Source of the DNA: a virus
Lineage: Duplodnaviria; Heunggongvirae; Uroviricota; Caudoviricetes
Virus record (IMG/VR): IMGVR_UViG_2675903606_000019
Span: 1 to 11,135 of that record
Direction: 5' to 3' (one strand)
DNA: 11,135 nt
Numbering within the stretch: position 1 is the first letter of the stretch; each line of letters begins with the position of its first letter. The notes under the pieces were generated by a model. The model saw only the letters and a list, made by a program, of their open reading frames with translations. It ran no database searches and was not told the DNA's origin. A program made the translations under genes and the position numbers. Below are positions 1 through 10,233 of this stretch, piece after piece.

Positions 1-1218
1 ATGAACAAACTGAGCGATACCTTGCTAAGGAAACTTCATGGTAAGCCAGCGGAGAAAAACACGTTTTATAGTGATGGCGGAAACCTGAGCGTGAAATATT
101 TAACATCAGGGAAATTGACCTGGTATTTCACATACAGGGCCGGAACGGGAAGGGAGACACGACCCGAACGCATTAAGCTGGGAAGTTATCCTGATCTGAG
201 CCTGAAAGCAGCCAGGGAAAAAGCCGCACAGTGTCGCACATGGCTGGCTGAGGGGAAAAATCCACGTCATGAGATGAATTACACCGTACAGGAAGCGTTA
301 AAGCCCGTAACGGTTGGCGATGCGCTCACCTACTGGCTTGAGTATTACGTAAAGGAAAACCGCGTGGATTATATCGCCCTGAAAAGGCGACTTAATAATC
401 ACGTAATACAGCAGATTGGTGCTATGCCGCTGGATAAATGCGAGCTACGGCACTGGCTGGCCTGTTTTGACCAGGTGGCAAAGCGAACGCCTGTTACTGC
501 CGGATTCGTGCTACAGGCGTGCAAACAGGCGCTTAAGTTCTGCCGTAGGCGGCGCTATGCAATCAGCAACGTTCTGGACGATCTGAACGTGGCGGACGTT
601 GGGAAAAAACCGGATATAAGCGAACGTGTCTTAAGTAACAAAGAACTTGGCGAATTATTGCAGGCACTGGACAAAAAAATATTTTCCCCTTACTACGTCG
701 CGTTAATCCGCCTCCTGATTGTCTTCGGAGCCAGGACGGTAGAACTGAGGCTATCGGAGATCGGGGAGTGGGATTTTACGGAAATGCTATGGACCGTTCC
801 GAAGGAGCACAGCAAAACGAAGGTCGCAATATTCCGGCCCATACCGGAAGCGATCCTGCCGTTCGTCACGCAGCTGGTGGAGCAGAACAGGCACACGGGC
901 TTATTGCTGGGGGAAGCGAAACAGGAGGCCAGCGTATCGCAGTATGGAAGATTAGCGCACAGGAGGCTTAATCATCCTCACTGGTCACTGCATGACATCC
1001 GGCGCACCTTTACAACCATGCTGAACGATTTAGGCGTTGATCCGCATGTCGTGGAGCAGCTTACAGGTCATCAGATGCCAGGAATGCAGCGAGTTTATAA
1101 TCATTCCCGTTATCTGGATGCTAAACGCAATGCGCTGGATATGTGGACGGAGCGGTTAGGGATACTGGCGGGAACACATGAAAACGTAACCACGCTACCA
1201 GTAGCCAGAAGAAAATAA
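1..1218 (+). CDS. int: P4-family tyrosine integrase (site-specific recombinase)
   Basis: 405-aa ORF from the track. N-terminal arm-binding-type segment (GKLTWYFTYR, GSYPDLSLKAAREKA) and C-terminal tyrosine-recombinase signature (HDIRRT ... GHQMPGMQRVYNHSRY). Overall pattern matches P4/CP4-57 IntA-type integrases from memory. Confidence 0.9.
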   Translation: MNKLSDTLLRKLHGKPAEKNTFYSDGGNLSVKYLTSGKLTWYFTYRAGTGRETRPERIKLGSYPDLSLKAAREKAAQCRTWLAEGKNPRHEMNYTVQEALKPVTVGDALTYWLEYYVKENRVDYIALKRRLNNHVIQQIGAMPLDKCELRHWLACFDQVAKRTPVTAGFVLQACKQALKFCRRRRYAISNVLDDLNVADVGKKPDISERVLSNKELGELLQALDKKIFSPYYVALIRLLIVFGARTVELRLSEIGEWDFTEMLWTVPKEHSKTKVAIFRPIPEAILPFVTQLVEQNRHTGLLLGEAKQEASVSQYGRLAHRRLNHPHWSLHDIRRTFTTMLNDLGVDPHVVEQLTGHQMPGMQRVYNHSRYLDAKRNALDMWTERLGILAGTHENVTTLPVARRK

Positions 1219-1592: not shown

Positions 1593-1781
1593 GTGTTAAG
1601 CACTGATCGGTTTATACGTGAAAAAGAATGCGAAAAGCTAACAGGCCTTAGCCGCTCATGCCGCTACCGCCTGGAAAAGGCCGGACAATTCCCATCACGT
1701 CGTAAACTTGGCGGTCGTTCCGTTGGCTGGTCTTTATCCGAGGTTCTGGCCTGGAAGGATAGCTGCAAGGCAGTTCATTAA
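1593..1781 (+). CDS. alpA: AlpA-family prophage transcriptional regulator (small HTH protein)
   Basis: 62-aa ORF with GTG start at 1593 and RBS AAGGGGG about 6 nt upstream. Pattern EKLTGLSRSCRYRLEKAGQFPSRRKLGGRSVGWSLSEVLAW matches the AlpA signature (G.SR...Y.....G.FP....LG.RSVGW...E...W). Confidence 0.85.
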   Translation: MLSTDRFIREKECEKLTGLSRSCRYRLEKAGQFPSRRKLGGRSVGWSLSEVLAWKDSCKAVH

Positions 1782-3483: not shown

Positions 3484-5603
3484 AAAAAGCGCCAAATTTA
3501 AAACACCAGCCGCGTGACAAAATGACGGAAGTCATCATTTTTGCGGGTAGTGATGCGTGGGCACATGCGAAGCAGTGGCAGGAACAGGACGGGCGACTGG
3601 CTGGCGACAGCGTGCCTCCTGTCTGGCTTGGAGAGCAACAACTTGCCGAACTGGATAAGCTGCAAATTGTGCCGGAAGGCCGAAAATCAGTACGCATATT
3701 CAGGGCCGGACATCTTGAGCCAGTAATGATCAAGGCGATTGGTCAGAAGCTGGCGGCGGCAGGCGTACAGGATGCAAATTTTTACCCTGATGGAATGCAC
3801 GGTCAGGAGGTGGAGAACTGGCGCGAATATCTAGCCCGTGAGCGGCAGAATCTTTCTGATGGTCTGGTTATTGAGTTTCCGGTAAAGAAAAAAGATACCG
3901 GAAGCCATAGCGATGACGAATTAAAGCCACGCGTTGAAAGTCGCGCCGATGGTGTTTTCTGGGTAACGCCCAAAGTGGATAAGCAGTCAGGCGAAATTAT
4001 CCGGCCTGAGACGTGGTTATGTTCTCCGCTTGAACTACTGGGAACGGGGACGATCGGTAAAGAGCATTACCGCGTGATGCGCTGGAAAAAAACCGCAAAC
4101 CATGAAGTCATCACAATGGCGATCCCGTGTGGTGGTATCGGCGACCGTGACGGCTGGCGGTTACTTAAAGATCACGGGCTGAACGTGACAACCAACGGCA
4201 AATACAGGGCAATCCTGGCGGACTGGATGCAGTTAAGCGGAAGCCATGAGGAATGGCAGTTAAGCACAACAACGGGCTGGCATTTTGGCGCGTACATCAT
4301 GCCGGACGGTTCGATCATTGGTGAATCTGAAAAACCGATCCTGTTTACCGGAAAAAGCGCCGCGATTAACGGTTATTCCGTGGCGGGCACGGCGGATGGC
4401 TGGCGCGACAGCGTGGCGCGGCTGGCTGGCGGTAATGCCTCAATGATGCTGGGTGTGGCAACGTCACTGGCAGCGCCTTTAATTGGCCTTGTGGGTGCTG
4501 ACGGCTTCGGGGTGCATCTTTTCGAACAGTCATCGGCAGGTAAGACCACCACGCAGAACATCGCATCAAGTTTATGGGGAGAGCCGGACGCGCAGCGGCT
4601 GACCTGGTACGGCACGGCGTTAGGTATTGCCAATGAGGCCGAGGCCCATAATGACGGGCTTTTACCACTGGATGAGATAGGCCAGGCCGGAAATGCGCGG
4701 GAAGTGTCAACGTCTGCTTATACGCTGTTTAACGGTTCAGGGAAATTGCAGGGGGCGAAGGATGGCGGCAACAGGGAGATCAAACACTGGCGAACGGTGG
4801 CAATCAGCACCGGAGAAATGGACGTTGAGACATTCCTCAAAAGTGAGGGGATAAAAGTTAAGGCGGGGCAGCTTGTCCGACTGCTTAACGTTCCGATGGA
4901 AAAAGCCACGAAATTTCACGAATACAGCAACGGTAAGGAACATGCTGACGCGTTAAAGGATGCCTGGACAGCAAATCACGGGGCGGCGGGTCGTGAGTGG
5001 GTTAAATGGCTGGCAGGCCACCAGCAGGAGGCAAAGGATACGGTAAGGGAATGCCGCGAACGGTGGCGCAACCTGATACCGGAGAGCTACGGCGAGCAGG
5101 TCCACCGCGTGGGTGAACGTTTCGCCATACTGGAGGCCGCGCTTGTGCTTTCCGGTCATGTAACTGGCTGGGTCGTGCAGGAATGCCGCGACGCGATACA
5201 GCATAACTTTAATGCCTGGGTGAAGGAGTTCGGCACGGGTAACAGGGAATTTAAACAGATGGTTGAACAGGCTGAGGCGTTTTTGTCGTCGTTTGGGTTT
5301 AGCCGCTACCTTCCGTACCCCAATACAGATGAGCGTGATTTACCGATTAAAGAGCTTGCCGGATACAGAAAAGGGAGCATTCGCAACGAAGATGACGAGA
5401 TGCGCTATTACACGTTCCCGCACGTGTTTGAGAGTGAGATAGCGAAGGGATTTAATCCGGCGCATTTTGCGCGTGCCCTGGATGCTGCCGGAATGCTGGA
5501 GAAGGGAAGCGATCGCCGATACAAAAAAAAGGCGCTGGGCAAGATTGGGGGTAAGCAGCATGTTTTTTACGTGCTGATGTTCCAGCCTGATGATGAAGAT
5601 TAA
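3480..5603 (+). CDS. Replication primase/helicase-type protein (P4 alpha / PICI Pri-Rep-like; NTPase with Walker A motif)
   Basis: About 707 aa (track ORF 3465..5603; the ATG at 3480 with ATGA overlap is preferred, ATG at 3465 or 3522 possible). Contains Walker A-like SSAGKTTT and is followed directly by an iteron array. Size and position match the satellite/prophage primase-helicase class. The exact domain family needs a profile search. Confidence 0.8.
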   Translation: MKKAPNLKHQPRDKMTEVIIFAGSDAWAHAKQWQEQDGRLAGDSVPPVWLGEQQLAELDKLQIVPEGRKSVRIFRAGHLEPVMIKAIGQKLAAAGVQDANFYPDGMHGQEVENWREYLARERQNLSDGLVIEFPVKKKDTGSHSDDELKPRVESRADGVFWVTPKVDKQSGEIIRPETWLCSPLELLGTGTIGKEHYRVMRWKKTANHEVITMAIPCGGIGDRDGWRLLKDHGLNVTTNGKYRAILADWMQLSGSHEEWQLSTTTGWHFGAYIMPDGSIIGESEKPILFTGKSAAINGYSVAGTADGWRDSVARLAGGNASMMLGVATSLAAPLIGLVGADGFGVHLFEQSSAGKTTTQNIASSLWGEPDAQRLTWYGTALGIANEAEAHNDGLLPLDEIGQAGNAREVSTSAYTLFNGSGKLQGAKDGGNREIKHWRTVAISTGEMDVETFLKSEGIKVKAGQLVRLLNVPMEKATKFHEYSNGKEHADALKDAWTANHGAAGREWVKWLAGHQQEAKDTVRECRERWRNLIPESYGEQVHRVGERFAILEAALVLSGHVTGWVVQECRDAIQHNFNAWVKEFGTGNREFKQMVEQAEAFLSSFGFSRYLPYPNTDERDLPIKELAGYRKGSIRNEDDEMRYYTFPHVFESEIAKGFNPAHFARALDAAGMLEKGSDRRYKKKALGKIGGKQHVFYVLMFQPDDED

Positions 5604-5625
5604 TCCCCTGTGTGAGGAAAAAAAT

Positions 5626-5941
5626 TGCGGGTTATGCGGGTTATCCTGTGTATAAGTGTATTAAGTGCATGAATATAAAGGAAACCAATAACCCGCACGT
5701 AACCCGCAAAAGGGCATTTATAACCCGCAAAAGCACGATTATAACCCGCAGGCGAATAACTGAAGTAACACCGGACAGTCATGCGTAACCCGCAGAAAAA
5801 ACCCAGTTTGCGGGTTATTTTGAGCGTTTTGCGGGTTACGTGGTGAGCAAATAATAAACAGGGTGTTTTGCAAAATACTGATATAAAAGGATAAAAAATG
5901 GTTAGCACGCTAAGATAACCCAATAACCCGCATAACCCGCA
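5626..5941. repeat. Iteron array: about 11-12 copies of TAACCCGCA in both orientations (probable replication origin)
   Basis: Reverse copies (TGCGGGTTA) at 5626-5634, 5635-5643, 5809-5817, 5830-5838. Forward copies at 5689-5697, 5700-5708, 5721-5729, 5742-5750, 5786-5794, 5924-5932, 5933-5941, plus a degenerate copy near 5914-5922. AT-rich stretches at 5855-5960. Lies immediately downstream of the primase/helicase gene. Confidence 0.75.
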
Positions 5942-5973
5942 CATGTTTCTATATATATAAATTGAGGTGGCAA

Positions 5974-6225
5974 ATGACCAGAACACGCAGAGACAGAACA
6001 GAGCCAAAATATAAAGCGTTAGACATGACTGAGCACACCTTAAAGGTGGCAATCAGAACGATAGACCGCCACACGCGGGAAGGATACGCGAAGGAACATC
6101 CCGACCTGATAAGCGCATTCATGACCACGGCGGCGGCAAACTTTGCCACGCTGACAGAACGGGAGATTGCCGAAGCGGAACAGGTAACAACCATCAACGT
6201 TAAAACCGGAGAGGTGGAATCATGA
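5974..6225 (+). CDS. Hypothetical protein (83 aa from ATG 5974; the track starts at TTG 5962)
   Basis: RBS GAGG at 5964-5967 precedes ATG 5974. Its stop overlaps the ssb start (ATGA at 6222-6225). No family recognised. Confidence 0.6.
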   Translation: MTRTRRDRTEPKYKALDMTEHTLKVAIRTIDRHTREGYAKEHPDLISAFMTTAAANFATLTEREIAEAEQVTTINVKTGEVES

Positions 6226-6632
6226 CAGCACAGATAGCGGCTTACGGTCGGCTGGTGGACGACCCGCAGGTAAAACAGACCAGCAAGGGCACACCGATGA
6301 CGCTGGCGCGTATGGCGGTATCACTGCCATGCAGTCAGGCACAGGACGGACAGGCGACGTTATGGCTATCGGTCATCGCATTTGGTAAGCAGGCCGACTT
6401 CCTGGCTAAACATCAAAAAGGCGACGTTGCCAGCGTATCCGGCACGATGCAGGTAAGCCAGTGGACCGGACAGAACGGGGAGACGCGTCAGGGTTATCAG
6501 GTTATTGCAGACAGCGTAATCAGTGCCCGTGCGGCACGTCCTGGCGGGAACAGACGCAAAACCACAGGCGCACAGGGTAATCAGCCACCAGCGGGAGGCG
6601 ATGACCCTTACGGTGATGATATTCCGTTCTGA
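6222..6632 (+). CDS. ssb: Single-stranded DNA-binding protein (SSB), short form with canonical acidic C-terminal tip
   Basis: 136 aa. OB-fold-like core (GRLVDDPQV..., W...FGKQADFL..KG..V...G......W....G..R) and C-terminus ending DDPYGDDIPF, matching the conserved SSB DDDIPF tail that recruits partner proteins. Confidence 0.85.
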   Translation: MTAQIAAYGRLVDDPQVKQTSKGTPMTLARMAVSLPCSQAQDGQATLWLSVIAFGKQADFLAKHQKGDVASVSGTMQVSQWTGQNGETRQGYQVIADSVISARAARPGGNRRKTTGAQGNQPPAGGDDPYGDDIPF

Positions 6633-6642
6633 GGGGGTGACG

Positions 6643-6915
6643 ATGGTACATGACCGCATAGCGGAAGAACTCGAAGCGAAAGGATTTTACCGGAGGGCGG
6701 CGGCGCGATGGGGTGAAGTCATGATGCTGGTGGAGACAGACAAGGAACGGCATCACATCACGATGCGACGGCTGGAATGTTCCAGGAAGGCACAGAGGCC
6801 ACCGGAGCCGCCGGATAACTTCGGAGACCTGAGAAAGGCAGTCGATCGCACTTATGCTGAAATGGGTATAGATGGTGTAAGCGATGAAATATGGCGTAAT
6901 TACCCAGGCAGCTAA
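6643..6915 (+). CDS. PerC-like small transcriptional regulator (90 aa)
   Basis: ATG at 6643 with RBS GAGGGGG 5 nt upstream (the track ORF 6523..6915 is in frame but its 5' part overlaps ssb). Motif EELEAKGFYRRAAARWGEVMM resembles the PerC-family signature (G-[FW]-[WY]-RRAA-x-RW) as I recall it. Confidence 0.55.
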   Translation: MVHDRIAEELEAKGFYRRAAARWGEVMMLVETDKERHHITMRRLECSRKAQRPPEPPDNFGDLRKAVDRTYAEMGIDGVSDEIWRNYPGS

Positions 6916-6921
6916 TCAACA

Positions 6922-6943
6922 GCCGGAGTAATCCGGCTTTTTT
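6922..6943 (+). terminator. Rho-independent terminator after the replication module
   Basis: Stem GCCGGA/TCCGGC with GTAA loop followed by TTTTTT (6938-6943). Confidence 0.7.
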
Positions 6944-6956
6944 GTACCCAAAAAAA

Positions 6957-6992
6957 GCCCGATAAGTACAGGAGGCATCTTATCGGGCTTTT
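6957..6992. terminator. Second hairpin terminator, potentially bidirectional
   Basis: 10-bp stem GCCCGATAAG/CTTATCGGGC with 12-nt loop. A-run upstream (6950-6956), TTTT downstream, and a further T8 run at 7003-7010. Confidence 0.5.
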
Positions 6993-7071
6993 GCATATGA
7001 GGTTTTTTTTGGTGCACTGACACACATGATCGGGATCATCATTTCATAATTTGCAACACAACTCAACATCA

Positions 7072-7155: not shown

Positions 7156-7362
7156 ATGGCTGAAGAGAAAAAAGGCGGTGTTTCGGTGTACATAAGCCCC
7201 GACATCGTGAAGGCGCTCAAGGAACGCCACCAGCAGAACGTAAAAGCAGGCATTGCGGCAGGACTTGATCCGCTGGCGATGGTTGAGCCGTCAACAGGCT
7301 GGCAGGTACGCGCCTATTTACGCGCGGCGCTGGGTATGAATCAGGTTCACGGGGGTGAATAA
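7156..7362 (+). CDS. Hypothetical protein (68 aa), first gene of the capsid operon
   Basis: RBS GAGGA 10 nt upstream. Its stop TAA overlaps the major capsid gene start (TAATG at 7360-7364). No family recognised. Confidence 0.6.
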   Translation: MAEEKKGGVSVYISPDIVKALKERHQQNVKAGIAAGLDPLAMVEPSTGWQVRAYLRAALGMNQVHGGE

Positions 7363-8417
7363 TGACAGTAAAAGCAATAGCACTTAACACTAACCAGCTT
7401 TTTGTGTACCTGAATCGCGAGGATATTGCGGAATTTAAATTCAGTCCGCTGTTTACCGCGCTGTTTTTCCCGAACGTGGCGACATTCAACACACAGGACA
7501 TCATGTTAGATAACCTGGATATTGAAGAAGTCACTATGTCGGCGTTTTGTTCGCCTATGGTGGGTAGCCAGGTTCAGCGCGATAAAGGGTACGAAACAAG
7601 CATTATTCGCCCTGGCTACATGAAGCCAAAACACGAAATCGATCCATTAAAAACAATAATGCGCATGGCTGGAGAAGATCCAGCACAGCTTAACGACCCT
7701 ACCTACCGCCGTATGCGCCTGATTACTGGCAACATGCGCCGCCAGATAAACGCCATTAAAGCGCGCGTGGAATGGCTGGCGGTAAATGCGGTAACGACCG
7801 GAAAAAACATCATTGAGGGCGAAGGCATAGAGCGCTATGAAATCGACTGGAAGATACCGGAAAAAAACATCATAGAGCAGGCCGACGGTAAAAAATGGTC
7901 AGAGCAGGACAAAGACATACACGACCCAATCTATGACATTGAGCTATACGCAGATCAGGCAGGTTGCCCCGCCAACGTCATGATTATGGGCGTTGATGTA
8001 TGGCGCATGTTACGCAGCTTTAAAAAATTCCGTGAACTGTACGATCTCTCCCGTGGTTCAGAATCCGCCGCAGAGCTGGCATGTAAAAACCTGGGCGAAG
8101 TGGTGAGCTTTAAAGGCTATCTTGGTGATCTGGCCCTTATCGTCTATTCCGGCAAATACACTGACAGCGACGGCACAGAAAAATATTTCCTTGAGCCTGA
8201 TTTGCTGGTCCTGGGCAACACCAACAATAAAGGGCTGGTGGCCTATGGTGCGATTATGGAACAGGAAGCGGTAAGAACGGGCGCAACGCAAAACATGTTT
8301 TACCCGAAAAACTGGATTGAAGACGGCGATCCGGCGATTGAGTACGTGCAGACACACAGCGCACCGCAGCCTGTTCCGGCAGATATTCGCAAATTTGTTA
8401 CCGTCAAAATTGGTTAA
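7362..8417 (+). CDS. Major capsid protein, lambda gpE family
   Basis: 351 aa. Multiple blocks match phage lambda gpE as recalled: FKFSPLFTALFF (lambda FKFDPLFLRLFF), PGYMKPKHEIDP (PGYVKPKHEVNP), EDPAQLNDPTYRRMRLITGNMRRQ (EDPQNLADPAYRRRRIIMQNMRDE), YPKNWIEDGDPAIEYVQTHSAP (YPKNWVTTGDPAREFTMIQSAP). Confidence 0.9.
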   Translation: MTVKAIALNTNQLFVYLNREDIAEFKFSPLFTALFFPNVATFNTQDIMLDNLDIEEVTMSAFCSPMVGSQVQRDKGYETSIIRPGYMKPKHEIDPLKTIMRMAGEDPAQLNDPTYRRMRLITGNMRRQINAIKARVEWLAVNAVTTGKNIIEGEGIERYEIDWKIPEKNIIEQADGKKWSEQDKDIHDPIYDIELYADQAGCPANVMIMGVDVWRMLRSFKKFRELYDLSRGSESAAELACKNLGEVVSFKGYLGDLALIVYSGKYTDSDGTEKYFLEPDLLVLGNTNNKGLVAYGAIMEQEAVRTGATQNMFYPKNWIEDGDPAIEYVQTHSAPQPVPADIRKFVTVKIG

Positions 8418-8428
8418 CGGTGGATTCT

Positions 8429-8764
8429 ATGAACACTCCATACATTGAGTTATTTGCAGGCAGTCAGCAGGTATCAACGACGCTGGTACATTTTGCCGCT
8501 GATGCTGGCGTTATTCAGGAATTTACCCCGCTGATGCTGGCGGACAATGGCGAGTTTAAGCCGTGGGATGGTCAGGAATCTGGCAAGGCTGTTTATCTGA
8601 CCTCGTACCCCGTTGACACGTCGACGCAGAAATCAGCACAGTGCTATAAGACGGGGATATTCAATATCGCCGCCGTTAACTGGCCTGAGAGCGTCGACAC
8701 CGATGCGAAAAAATGCGCCGCCTTTGCGGGTTCTGGCGTATCCGTTCAGCCGCTGGCCCGATAA
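8429..8764 (+). CDS. Head decoration protein, lambda gpD family
   Basis: 111 aa from ATG 8429 (the track starts at GTG 8420); RBS GGTGGA 5 nt upstream. Matches lambda gpD blocks: TPLMLADNGEFKPWDG (lambda TPLMLDTSSRKLVAWDG), YKTGIFNIAAVNWPESVDTDAKKCAAFAGSGVSV ([35 protein letters not shown]). Confidence 0.85.
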   Translation: MNTPYIELFAGSQQVSTTLVHFAADAGVIQEFTPLMLADNGEFKPWDGQESGKAVYLTSYPVDTSTQKSAQCYKTGIFNIAAVNWPESVDTDAKKCAAFAGSGVSVQPLAR

Positions 8765-8776
8765 GCAGGGGGAACG

Positions 8777-9190
8777 ATGGCAACGAATGAAAGCATCATG
8801 GCGCTACCGCTGGCGAGTAAATTTAAAGCCGAAGCGCGGGCAATGGCTGACAGAGGGTTATCAACCTACGAGGCCGTATATCAACTCAACAAACTGGAAG
8901 AACAGGACAAGCCGCGCGCTGATGCGATTATGGCGCTTCATGAACATAACGACTATCAGCCGCTGTTACGTGCAATGGCAAACGTGCCATGTATTAGCGT
9001 CGATAATGCTCGTGAAATCCTGAACATGACCATAGAGCAGGAGCGCCCAAAGGTTGCACCAGAGCTTACCGCAGCCTTTGAAAACTTTATGGACATGCAC
9101 AGCCCGCAAGCCGTATCAGCTGGCATGGCATACGATGGCAGAAACCAGGGCGATGACGGCGACATCGATCACATACTGAAAACCATCTGA
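8777..9190 (+). CDS. Hypothetical protein (137 aa), last gene of the capsid operon
   Basis: RBS AGGGGGA 4 nt upstream of the ATG. Acidic C-terminus. No resemblance noted to lambda FI/FII/W as I recall them. Followed by a strong terminator. Confidence 0.65.
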   Translation: MATNESIMALPLASKFKAEARAMADRGLSTYEAVYQLNKLEEQDKPRADAIMALHEHNDYQPLLRAMANVPCISVDNAREILNMTIEQERPKVAPELTAAFENFMDMHSPQAVSAGMAYDGRNQGDDGDIDHILKTI

Positions 9191-9196
9191 GACAAG

Positions 9197-9220
9197 GCCG
9201 GAGAAATCCGGCTTTTTTTT
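9197..9220 (+). terminator. Strong rho-independent terminator (GNRA tetraloop hairpin plus T8)
   Basis: Stem GCCGGA/TCCGGC with GAAA loop and 8 T (9213-9220). The stem is identical to that of the terminator at 6922-6943. Confidence 0.8.
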
Positions 9221-9298
9221 ACGGGTCCTTTCCGGCATATGGACCCGTTACGGGGCGGCGACCTCGCGGTTTTTCGCTATTTATGAGCCTTTTCAGGG
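9221..9298. other. Lambda-type cos site (cosQ-like, cosN 12-nt cohesive end GGGCGGCGACCT at 9253-9264, start of cosB)
   Basis: ACGGGTCCTTTCCGG...GTTACG-GGGCGGCGACCT-CGCGGTTTTTCGCTATTTATGA closely matches the right and left termini of phage lambda as I recall them (right end ...ACGGGTCCTTTCCGGTGATCCGACAGGTTACG, left end GGGCGGCGACCTCGCGGGTTTTCGCTATTTATGA...). Sequence diverges from lambda after about 9298. Confidence 0.8.
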
Positions 9299-9358
9299 GG
9301 GTGGTGGTGGTTTTGTTGTTTGCTCTATCTTTATGAATGAAAAGGGAAAGATGCAAAC

Positions 9359-9396
9359 AATACACCAACCTGAAGCAGTAATTAAGTTGGTGTATT
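9359..9396. repeat. Perfect 11-bp inverted repeat AATACACCAAC-N16-GTTGGTGTATT abutting the terS start codon
   Basis: Read directly from the sequence. The right arm ends 2 nt before ATG 9398. Candidate cosB-type binding site or a translational-control hairpin. Confidence 0.5.
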
Positions 9397-9397
9397 A

Positions 9398-9940
9398 ATG
9401 AAATCGCACCTGATGAACAAAAAAAACATGGCGAAAAGCTGCCGTGTAAGTGCGACAGCGTTCGACAAGTGGGGAGTGACTCCCGTTGAACGTAAAGGCC
9501 GTGAGGCGTTTTACGATGTTGCCAGCGTGATAGACAATAGGGTTAACAATGCAATTAGCCAGCTTACAAACGACAAAGGCGATATTGATGATGATGAACT
9601 CTTACGAGTCAGGATCAGATTACTGACAGCACAGGCGGAGGCGCAGGAACTTAAAAACGAGCGCGATCGCGGTGACGTGATCGATACTGAGTTTTGCCTG
9701 TACGCGCTTTCAAAGCTGGCGAGTCAGATTTCATCAATCATGGACAGCCTCCCGCTTACTATGCAAAGGAGCTTCCCACAGATTACCCCCGCCATGCTGG
9801 ATAGGCTTAAAAGGGAAGTGGTTAAAGCCTGTAATGCCAGTGCCAGAGTTGCCGACAACCTCCCACAGATACTGGCTGATTACTTGAAAGAAACAACCGG
9901 AAACGTACCGGAAAAGTTGCAGCCGAATAAAGATAAGTAA
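9398..9940 (+). CDS. Terminase small subunit, lambda Nu1 family
   Basis: 180 aa. C-terminal two thirds align with lambda Nu1 as recalled: RLLTAQAEAQELKNERDRGDVIDTEFCLYALSKLASQISSIMDSLPLTMQRSFPQ (lambda RLTRAQADAQELKNARDSAEVVETAFCTFVLSRIAGEIASILDGLPLSVQRRFPE). N-terminal region is more divergent but still shows NKK...W...G.PV.R.G....YD.A.VI. Confidence 0.85.
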   Translation: MKSHLMNKKNMAKSCRVSATAFDKWGVTPVERKGREAFYDVASVIDNRVNNAISQLTNDKGDIDDDELLRVRIRLLTAQAEAQELKNERDRGDVIDTEFCLYALSKLASQISSIMDSLPLTMQRSFPQITPAMLDRLKREVVKACNASARVADNLPQILADYLKETTGNVPEKLQPNKDK

Positions 9941-9951
9941 CGTAGTACGCT

Positions 9952-10233
9952 ATGACTGAATCCGAAATACTGCGATTAATCCGCCGCGTCTCTGGAATCA
10001 GCCAGCAGGCTGACGAACAGACCACGCAGCCGGACAGCGTGACAGCCGAAAACTATGCGCGTGTTGTTGCTGAGGTGATGCGCCGTGATGGTATAGAACT
10101 TAATGGCGTGGATATGCGCAACATACGAACCAGAGTTCTTGAGTTGCTGGCCTACCGTCGCCGCGTGGAGATGTATCGGGAGAAGGAGAAAATAACGTAC
10201 CACTGGAAGAAGCCGGAGCGGTTGCGGCGGTAA
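9952..10233 (+). CDS. Hypothetical protein (93 aa) downstream of terS
   Basis: Track ORF MTESEILRLIRRVSGISQQADEQ... It occupies the position where lambda has the large terminase gene A, but is far too small to be a terminase. No family recognised. Confidence 0.55.
   Translation: MTESEILRLIRRVSGISQQADEQTTQPDSVTAENYARVVAEVMRRDGIELNGVDMRNIRTRVLELLAYRRRVEMYREKEKITYHWKKPERLRR

Follow-up and report, generated by a model that had tools for sequence, protein, structure and literature searches.

A short single-stranded DNA-binding protein gene beside a predicted iteron origin in a putative Escherichia coli phage-inducible chromosomal island

Layout of the locus

The window, meaning the whole stretch of 11,135 nucleotides that was analysed, carries on its plus strand a tightly packed cassette of three genes (5974–6915), encoding a helical protein of 83 residues (hyp83), an SSB (single-stranded DNA-binding protein) of 136 residues and a 90-residue regulator of the PerC family (Table 1). 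All three open reading frames lie where the original prediction had placed them. The hyp83 gene starts at an ATG that follows a GAGGTGG ribosome-binding site, and its stop codon overlaps the ATG of the SSB gene in the tetranucleotide ATGA (6222–6225); the ATG of the PerC gene lies 10 nt past the SSB stop codon, which is overlapped by a GAGGGGG site. The cassette is closed directly after PerC by two tandem intrinsic terminators, the first formed by a hairpin at 6921–6938 with a U-run and the second by a 14-bp stem (6953–6992) that is preceded by an A-run and followed by UUUU. No sigma-70-like promoter was found on the plus strand upstream of the cassette, the origin included, and the spacing of the three genes suggests that they form an operon.

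Table 1 Positions of the genes, origin and terminators in the window, and of iteron spacers in related islands
Feature	Position	Strand	Basis
Tyrosine integrase gene	1–1218		
AlpA gene	1593–1781		
DUF4222 gene	between the AlpA and replicase genes		
DUF927 primase-helicase (island replicase), 712 aa	3465–5603	+	PF06048 (DUF927), E 1.6e-48
Iteron-type replication origin (predicted)	5627–5940	.	11 TAACCCGC(A) repeats, some in each orientation, around AT-rich stretches
hyp83, 83 aa, helical	5974–6225	+	phrog_1231, E 5e-53
Island SSB, 136 aa	6222–6632	+	PF00436, 62.5 bits (cut-off 26), E 4.2e-17; TIGR00621, 58 bits (cut-off 53.95)
Acidic C-terminal tip codons, DDPYGDDIPF (residues 127–136)	6600–6629	+	alignment with K-12 SSB
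PerC-family regulator, 90 aa	6643–6915	+	PF06069, 150.7 bits (cut-off 22.6), E 1.4e-44, model positions 1–89 of 90
Two tandem intrinsic-terminator hairpins	6921–6996	+	terminator scan; RNA fold −33.1 kcal/mol, z −5.2
Iteron spacers	window 5627–5940; L003 6738–6937; L004 6793–7079; L007 6765–7000; L016 6626–7000; L010 6749–7000; L009 6586–7000		

Along the window the gene order is integrase, AlpA, DUF4222, DUF927 primase-helicase, cassette and capsid-related genes. The primase-helicase gene, whose counterparts in sister islands are annotated ‘DUF927 domain-containing protein’, lies directly upstream of the predicted origin and the cassette, and the end of the origin is separated from the hyp83 start codon by 33 nt. 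The repeat TAACCCGC has 13 matches in the window, 11 of them within the origin, against an expectation of 0.4 for the whole window; the origin region also contains the repeat families D1–D5.

Gram-negative phage-inducible chromosomal islands (PICIs) were taken to be elements of approximately 10–15 kb that possess an integrase, AlpA, a primase or replicase with its origin, and packaging-related genes, and that are devoid of lysis and tail genes. The window shows this gene content, by which it is an E. coli PICI, and tqsA is the insertion site in related E. coli records. The island context proposed originally is thus borne out by the tyrosine integrase, AlpA, DUF927 protein, lambda-like capsid protein, Nu1-like terminase and tqsA insertion. 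Capsid-forming PICIs (cf-PICIs) possess a full set for capsid formation and packaging, made up of protease, portal, connectors and HNH together with a major capsid protein and small and large terminases; the genes of this kind in the window are limited to those for a capsid protein of lambda type, a decoration protein, one scaffold-like protein and the small terminase. Two sister islands with the same cassette (L001 and L002) possess a complete HK97-type cf-PICI module.

The capsid-related genes, at 7156–10233, encode a lambda-type major capsid protein E, a decoration protein D, the scaffold-like protein, whose match is to the C-terminal part of a PHROG of head-maturation proteases, together with a small terminase that is Nu1-like; portal, protease and large terminase are absent from the island. 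In the island of E. coli PM4-5 (L004, 10917–11459) the Nu1-like gene is annotated on the strand opposite to that in the window and the other sister islands, which suggests a local inversion. A 341-residue open reading frame at 1839–2864 on the plus strand is probably not one real gene, as relatives annotate there a truncated hypothetical gene and an Icd-like cell-division inhibitor; their annotation also has a YlcI/YnfO-family gene opposite it, on the minus strand (2282–2461). Three minus-strand open reading frames (5600–6052, 6366–6659 and 6520–6756), unannotated in the related records examined, were dismissed as by-products of the coding strand. No hidden RNA gene or tRNA was found in the window.

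The island SSB and its acidic tip

Profile searches upheld the SSB assignment, with PF00436 and TIGR00621 both matched above their curated cut-offs, and likewise the assignment of the downstream gene to the PerC family (PF06069; Table 1). The scores against two SSB subfamily models are far under their cut-offs: 28.2 bits against 260 for NF006533, the enterobacterial chromosomal subfamily, in which the K-12 SSB scores 360, and 24.8 bits against 265 for NF010292 (PRK13732). The best solved relatives are the SSBs of Thermus, Deinococcus and Thermotoga. By these comparisons the 136-residue protein is a divergent bacterial OB-fold SSB, 26–29% identical to the 178-residue SSB of E. coli K-12.

The predicted OB domain spans approximately residues 1–104 and is connected to the C-terminal tip by a linker at approximately residues 105–126, which, with about 22 residues compared with about 56 in the host protein, is short, as had been anticipated. 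Members of the island SSB family range from 136 to 149 residues because this linker varies in length. Of the four aromatic residues that stack on ssDNA in the host protein (W40, W54, F60 and W88), the last three have aligned counterparts in the island SSB, namely W48, F54 and W81. Host W40 is replaced by C37, which is invariant across the island family, and host H55 by L49. From its sequence the protein would be expected to bind ssDNA, and it may form homo-oligomers.

The island SSB ends in ...GGDDPYGDDIPF, the last five residues of which (DDIPF) are identical to those of the K-12 SSB (...MDFDDDIPF), so the original description of an intact, host-like tip holds for this protein. Among the 120 family clusters listed, GGDDPYGDDIPF is the commonest tail and most end in IPF, with DNIPF, DGIPF, DDISF and DDVPF as variants. 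In orthologues from other genera the end is mostly PF or DF preceded by acidic residues (PPFDDEAPF, PYDDDF and FDDDIPF are examples), and a few have lost the terminal Phe. Judged by these alignments, the acidic tip is generally conserved, not invariant, and the natural variants together with the lost terminal Phe would mean that docking of partners on the tip is not strictly maintained. Loci with variant tips include L003 (7186–7596), L002 (8623–9033) and L004 (7322–7732). The SSB of E. coli O157:H7 PA20 ends in ...DGIPF, in place of the DDIPF of the window, and another natural E. coli allele ends in ...DDISF, whose Pro-to-Ser replacement is that of the classical host ssb-113 mutation. Such natural alleles, the ssb-113-like one included, are ready material for testing the island SSB.

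The SSB gene is under purifying selection, with dN/dS values of 0.05–0.24 that include pairs from different genera with dS above 1. At a coverage of at least 80% it occurs in 994 of 5,426 complete E. coli genomes, approximately one-fifth, with up to six copies per genome and 1,453 places in total, all but one of them chromosomal; a single protein cluster comprises 1,200 member sequences. E. coli E110019 encodes a 100% identical protein annotated ‘single-stranded DNA-binding protein’, and SSBs annotated as such in RefSeq are 99–100% identical. At the DNA level the gene is absent from 50,697 phage records, in which the best protein match is 35% identical and the matches are mostly from phages of Gram-positive hosts; it is also rare in plasmid records.

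Three possible recent sources of the gene were rejected. The identity of 26–29% rules out a recent origin in the host chromosome; helper-type phages are ruled out as a source by an identity of at most 35% and by the mostly Gram-positive origin of the matches, and the PRK13732 lineage by a score far under the subfamily cut-off, as well as by the rarity of the gene in plasmid records. The lack of a close phage relative and the scores far under the NF006533 and PRK13732 cut-offs point to a long-standing satellite lineage of the island SSB, not a recent capture.

Synteny and the companion genes

Sampling of one genome per species yielded 35 loci from Enterobacterales, with genera including Escherichia, Klebsiella, Enterobacter, Leclercia, Kluyvera, Edwardsiella, Pectobacterium, Serratia, Rahnella and Budvicia. 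The SSB gene comes directly after a gene for a DUF927 or P4-alpha-like primase in approximately 30 of the 35 loci, and PerC follows it in approximately 11. SSB is retained in more than 30 species, while hyp83, PerC and the type of replicase come and go. Within E. coli, three unrelated replicases (DUF927, P4-alpha-like DNA primase and RepA-type helicase), each with iterons of its own, are encoded upstream of a cassette that is identical or nearly so; downstream of it, some islands have a partial set of lambda-like capsid genes and others a full HK97-type cf-PICI module.

Between the replicase gene and SSB (or hyp83), every one of the eight islands examined has an AT-rich spacer crowded with iterons, with a different, lineage-specific set in each (examples are TAACCCGCA, AAAAGTGAGG, CTGTTCACC, GGGACAAG, GAGACAACA, CTGAACCAAC and ATGAACACC; positions in Table 1). 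Islands with other replicases carry different iterons at the same position, and the SSBs encoded downstream of these differing sets are homologous in all eight. The conserved unit thus consists of a replicase, its cognate origin and the SSB, of which the SSB is, by this synteny, the part independent of replicase and iteron specificity.

The upstream gene, hyp83, left without an assignment in the original prediction, retains that status: its only profile match is phrog_1231, a PHROG without known function, and no match was found in Pfam, NCBIfam, PADLOC or the sequences of the PDB. Proteins closely related to it are confined to Escherichia, Shigella and Citrobacter and, among the 35 Enterobacterales loci, the gene is present only in Escherichia and Shigella; on this distribution, hyp83 is an Escherichia-group addition to the cassette. 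Exhaustive HMMER and profile searches defined a wider family of proteins of 70–110 residues with the conserved core ID..FG.GYA..HPELVAAFM.TAA.DF, all of which match phrog_1231. AlphaFold models reached a pLDDT of 67 and then, with 67 sequences, of 82.5; the latter model is a helical hairpin, for which Foldseek returned nothing significant among PDB and viral structures.

One Pseudomonas phage and four loci of metagenomic or genomic origin served to inspect the surroundings of distant hyp83 homologues. In the Pseudomonas phage, KT1, the homologue follows a Prim-Pol/DUF5906 primase-helicase; the others adjoin a beta-clamp gene, precede a 957-residue protein that has no Pfam match, lie near a DNA methylase gene, or are located in a region with defence-type genes. 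All are in early regions of prophage-like or mobile elements, which suggests that hyp83 is cargo of early or replication regions. Since an SSB gene is not a consistent neighbour of these homologues, no function was assigned to hyp83.

The PerC-family protein matches PF06069 over its full length, as a member of the family that includes PerC of EPEC, PchA–E of EHEC and EcCIMP1_025. It shares 85 of 90 residues (94%) with the corresponding protein of island OI-51 in strain PA20 and, on this similarity, is the orthologue of PchE from E. coli O157:H7. Function varies in the family: PerC and the Group 1 Pch proteins activate LEE, whereas PchE does not, and EcCIMP1_025, encoded by a PICI, represses LEE1 (PMC11773190). 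PerC-family genes are common in Gram-negative PICIs (PMC11773190). Plasmid over-expression of PchE repressed csgD, curli and biofilm formation and raised flagellar expression with little effect on LEE, and in O157:H7 an SOS-inducing antibiotic lowered the pchE transcript by more than six-fold (PMC6265319, PMC7369912). The original prediction held that PerC could couple island induction to host gene expression; an influence on host expression agrees with the effects of PchE over-expression on curli and flagella, but the fall of pchE under SOS offers no tie to induction.

The island of E. coli RM10466 (L005, 8768–9420) lacks PerC, and there the same two terminators come immediately after the SSB stop codon, which makes PerC optional; from this comparison and its distribution, PerC appears to be a frequent but dispensable accessory regulator between SSB and terminators. 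A sub-threshold match of the window PerC (6643–6915) to the ANR negative-regulator model NF033650 (E 4.8e-4; 19.9 bits against 32) echoes a remark in the EcCIMP1 paper. A very short open reading frame overlapping the 3′ end of PerC (L002, 9285–9400; L004, 7972–8100) is labelled ‘trigger factor’ in many RefSeq records and marked as a frameshifted pseudogene in PA20; the label looks like a propagated mis-annotation.

Candidate roles of the SSB and relation to known islands

We think it rather likely that the region is the distal end of a PICI replication module, in which the SSB coats ssDNA and carries a host-like tip, PerC is an accessory gene and hyp83 an Escherichia-group addition. This reading builds on what was observed for the cassette genes: the families to which they belong, their conserved residues and tip, the coupling and synteny of the genes, their prevalence and the signs of purifying selection. 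A contribution of the SSB to the island's own replication, one of the roles suggested at the outset, fits the succession of replicase, iteron origin and SSB across islands.

On induction of the island, the primase-helicase would bind the adjacent TAACCCGCA iterons and open the AT-rich origin, and the OB-fold SSB encoded just downstream would coat the single strands thus exposed. Its tip probably recruits host replisome proteins: because the last five residues are those of the host, the same partners should dock there, such as the chi subunit of Pol III and enzymes of the primosome and of repair. With an SSB of its own that bears a host-like docking tip, the satellite would add SSB capacity for a replication burst in which it and the helper phage compete for the SSB of the host. 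The arrangement further suggests co-transcription of the cassette with the replicase, and the SSB may be needed to some degree for island replication as well as for recruiting partners. Phage P4 and the staphylococcal SaPIs are not known to use an SSB of their own for replication, and the island SSB may therefore be helpful, not required. The literature searched yielded no experiment with a PICI SSB, and the cf-PICI papers do not mention an SSB.

The sufficiency of host SSB for P4 and SaPIs would also accord with a working SSB that is redundant with that of the host, contributes little and persists because its module moves as a block, and the tip variants and some truncated alleles could be read in the same way. 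Such a passenger is nevertheless unlikely, given dN/dS values that stay low even between genera and the retention of SSB through changes of hyp83, PerC and replicase type. It is alternatively conceivable, much as the original prediction suggested when it raised titration of host or helper factors, that the protein acts mainly by competing for the partners of host SSB, or for helper proteins that bind such tips, with interference with the helper, damped recombination or SOS, or a gain for the satellite as the outcome. The exact match of the last five residues to the host's would serve this purpose, the much shorter linker could change how partners are presented, and a lineage absent from sequenced phages would be a satellite-specific asset. 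There is, however, no specific sign of competition, and the position beside the origin, kept with different types of replicase, is explained more simply by replication; natural alleles with altered tips speak against partner binding as the main function under selection, and the cassette has no PADLOC defence match. We therefore hold competition as the main role to be quite unlikely.

Some phage SSBs trigger retron-based or reverse-transcriptase-based defence systems, one phage SSB-like protein has reportedly been linked to activation of DRT10 (in a preprint), and PICIs often carry defence cargo. By analogy with that link, and with defence cargo so frequent in PICIs, the island SSB might be an anti-defence factor or a target sensed in phage-defence conflicts. 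This is most improbable, as no cassette protein matches a defence family in PADLOC and the SSB gene sits in the replication module, not in an accessory region. Taken together, the synteny, the selection data and the lack of defence-family matches leave all three of these alternatives less well supported than a replication role. A more elaborate scheme, to which we attach very little probability, would have the SSB as a dedicated hub through which replisome and repair proteins of the host are steered towards the satellite origin or kept from the helper phage, with the coupled hyp83 as an Escherichia-group partner and PerC ancestrally in control of satellite genes; PerC is also present in genera that lack LEE.

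The cassette itself is already known, being annotated in RefSeq and having had its SSB and PerC genes described in 2012 (PMC3378721). With that annotation and with an SSB gene in about one-fifth of complete E. coli genomes, the locus has little discovery value; the layout of replicase, iterons and SSB across Enterobacterales provides a clean, testable case of why satellites carry an SSB despite that of the host.

The closest described counterpart is OI-51 of O157:H7 (also CP-933C or Sp7; the cf-PICI EcCIEDL933), where this trio of genes, identically ordered and spaced, comes directly behind a DUF927 replicase and the same TAACCCGCA iteron origin. Identities between the window and O157:H7 PA20 are 94% for hyp83, 99% for SSB and 94% for PerC/PchE. 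The two islands differ in their insertion site, which is tqsA for the window island and roxA–phoQ for OI-51, and in the downstream module, a full HK97-type set of capsid, portal and terminase genes in OI-51 compared with the partial lambda-like set of the window. The SSB (as ‘ssDNA’) and PchE of OI-51 were both noted in that earlier work, which also reported conservation of the SSB gene in the islands of ED1a and CFT073 (PMC3378721). Further afield, the island of Enterobacter asburiae, with the order AlpA, AntA antirepressor, Ash, Zn-ribbon/Toprim/DUF927 primase, iterons, SSB and PerC, resembles the published layout of EcCIMP1 (PMC11773190). An analysis of PICI gene content assigned SSB, along with Primase, DUF5906 and mapped origins, to its Replication category (PMC10111431, Mageeney et al. 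2023), and the architecture of the Gram-negative PICI replication module described there is the same as that seen here, with no material difference, so that the window represents one more instance of it.
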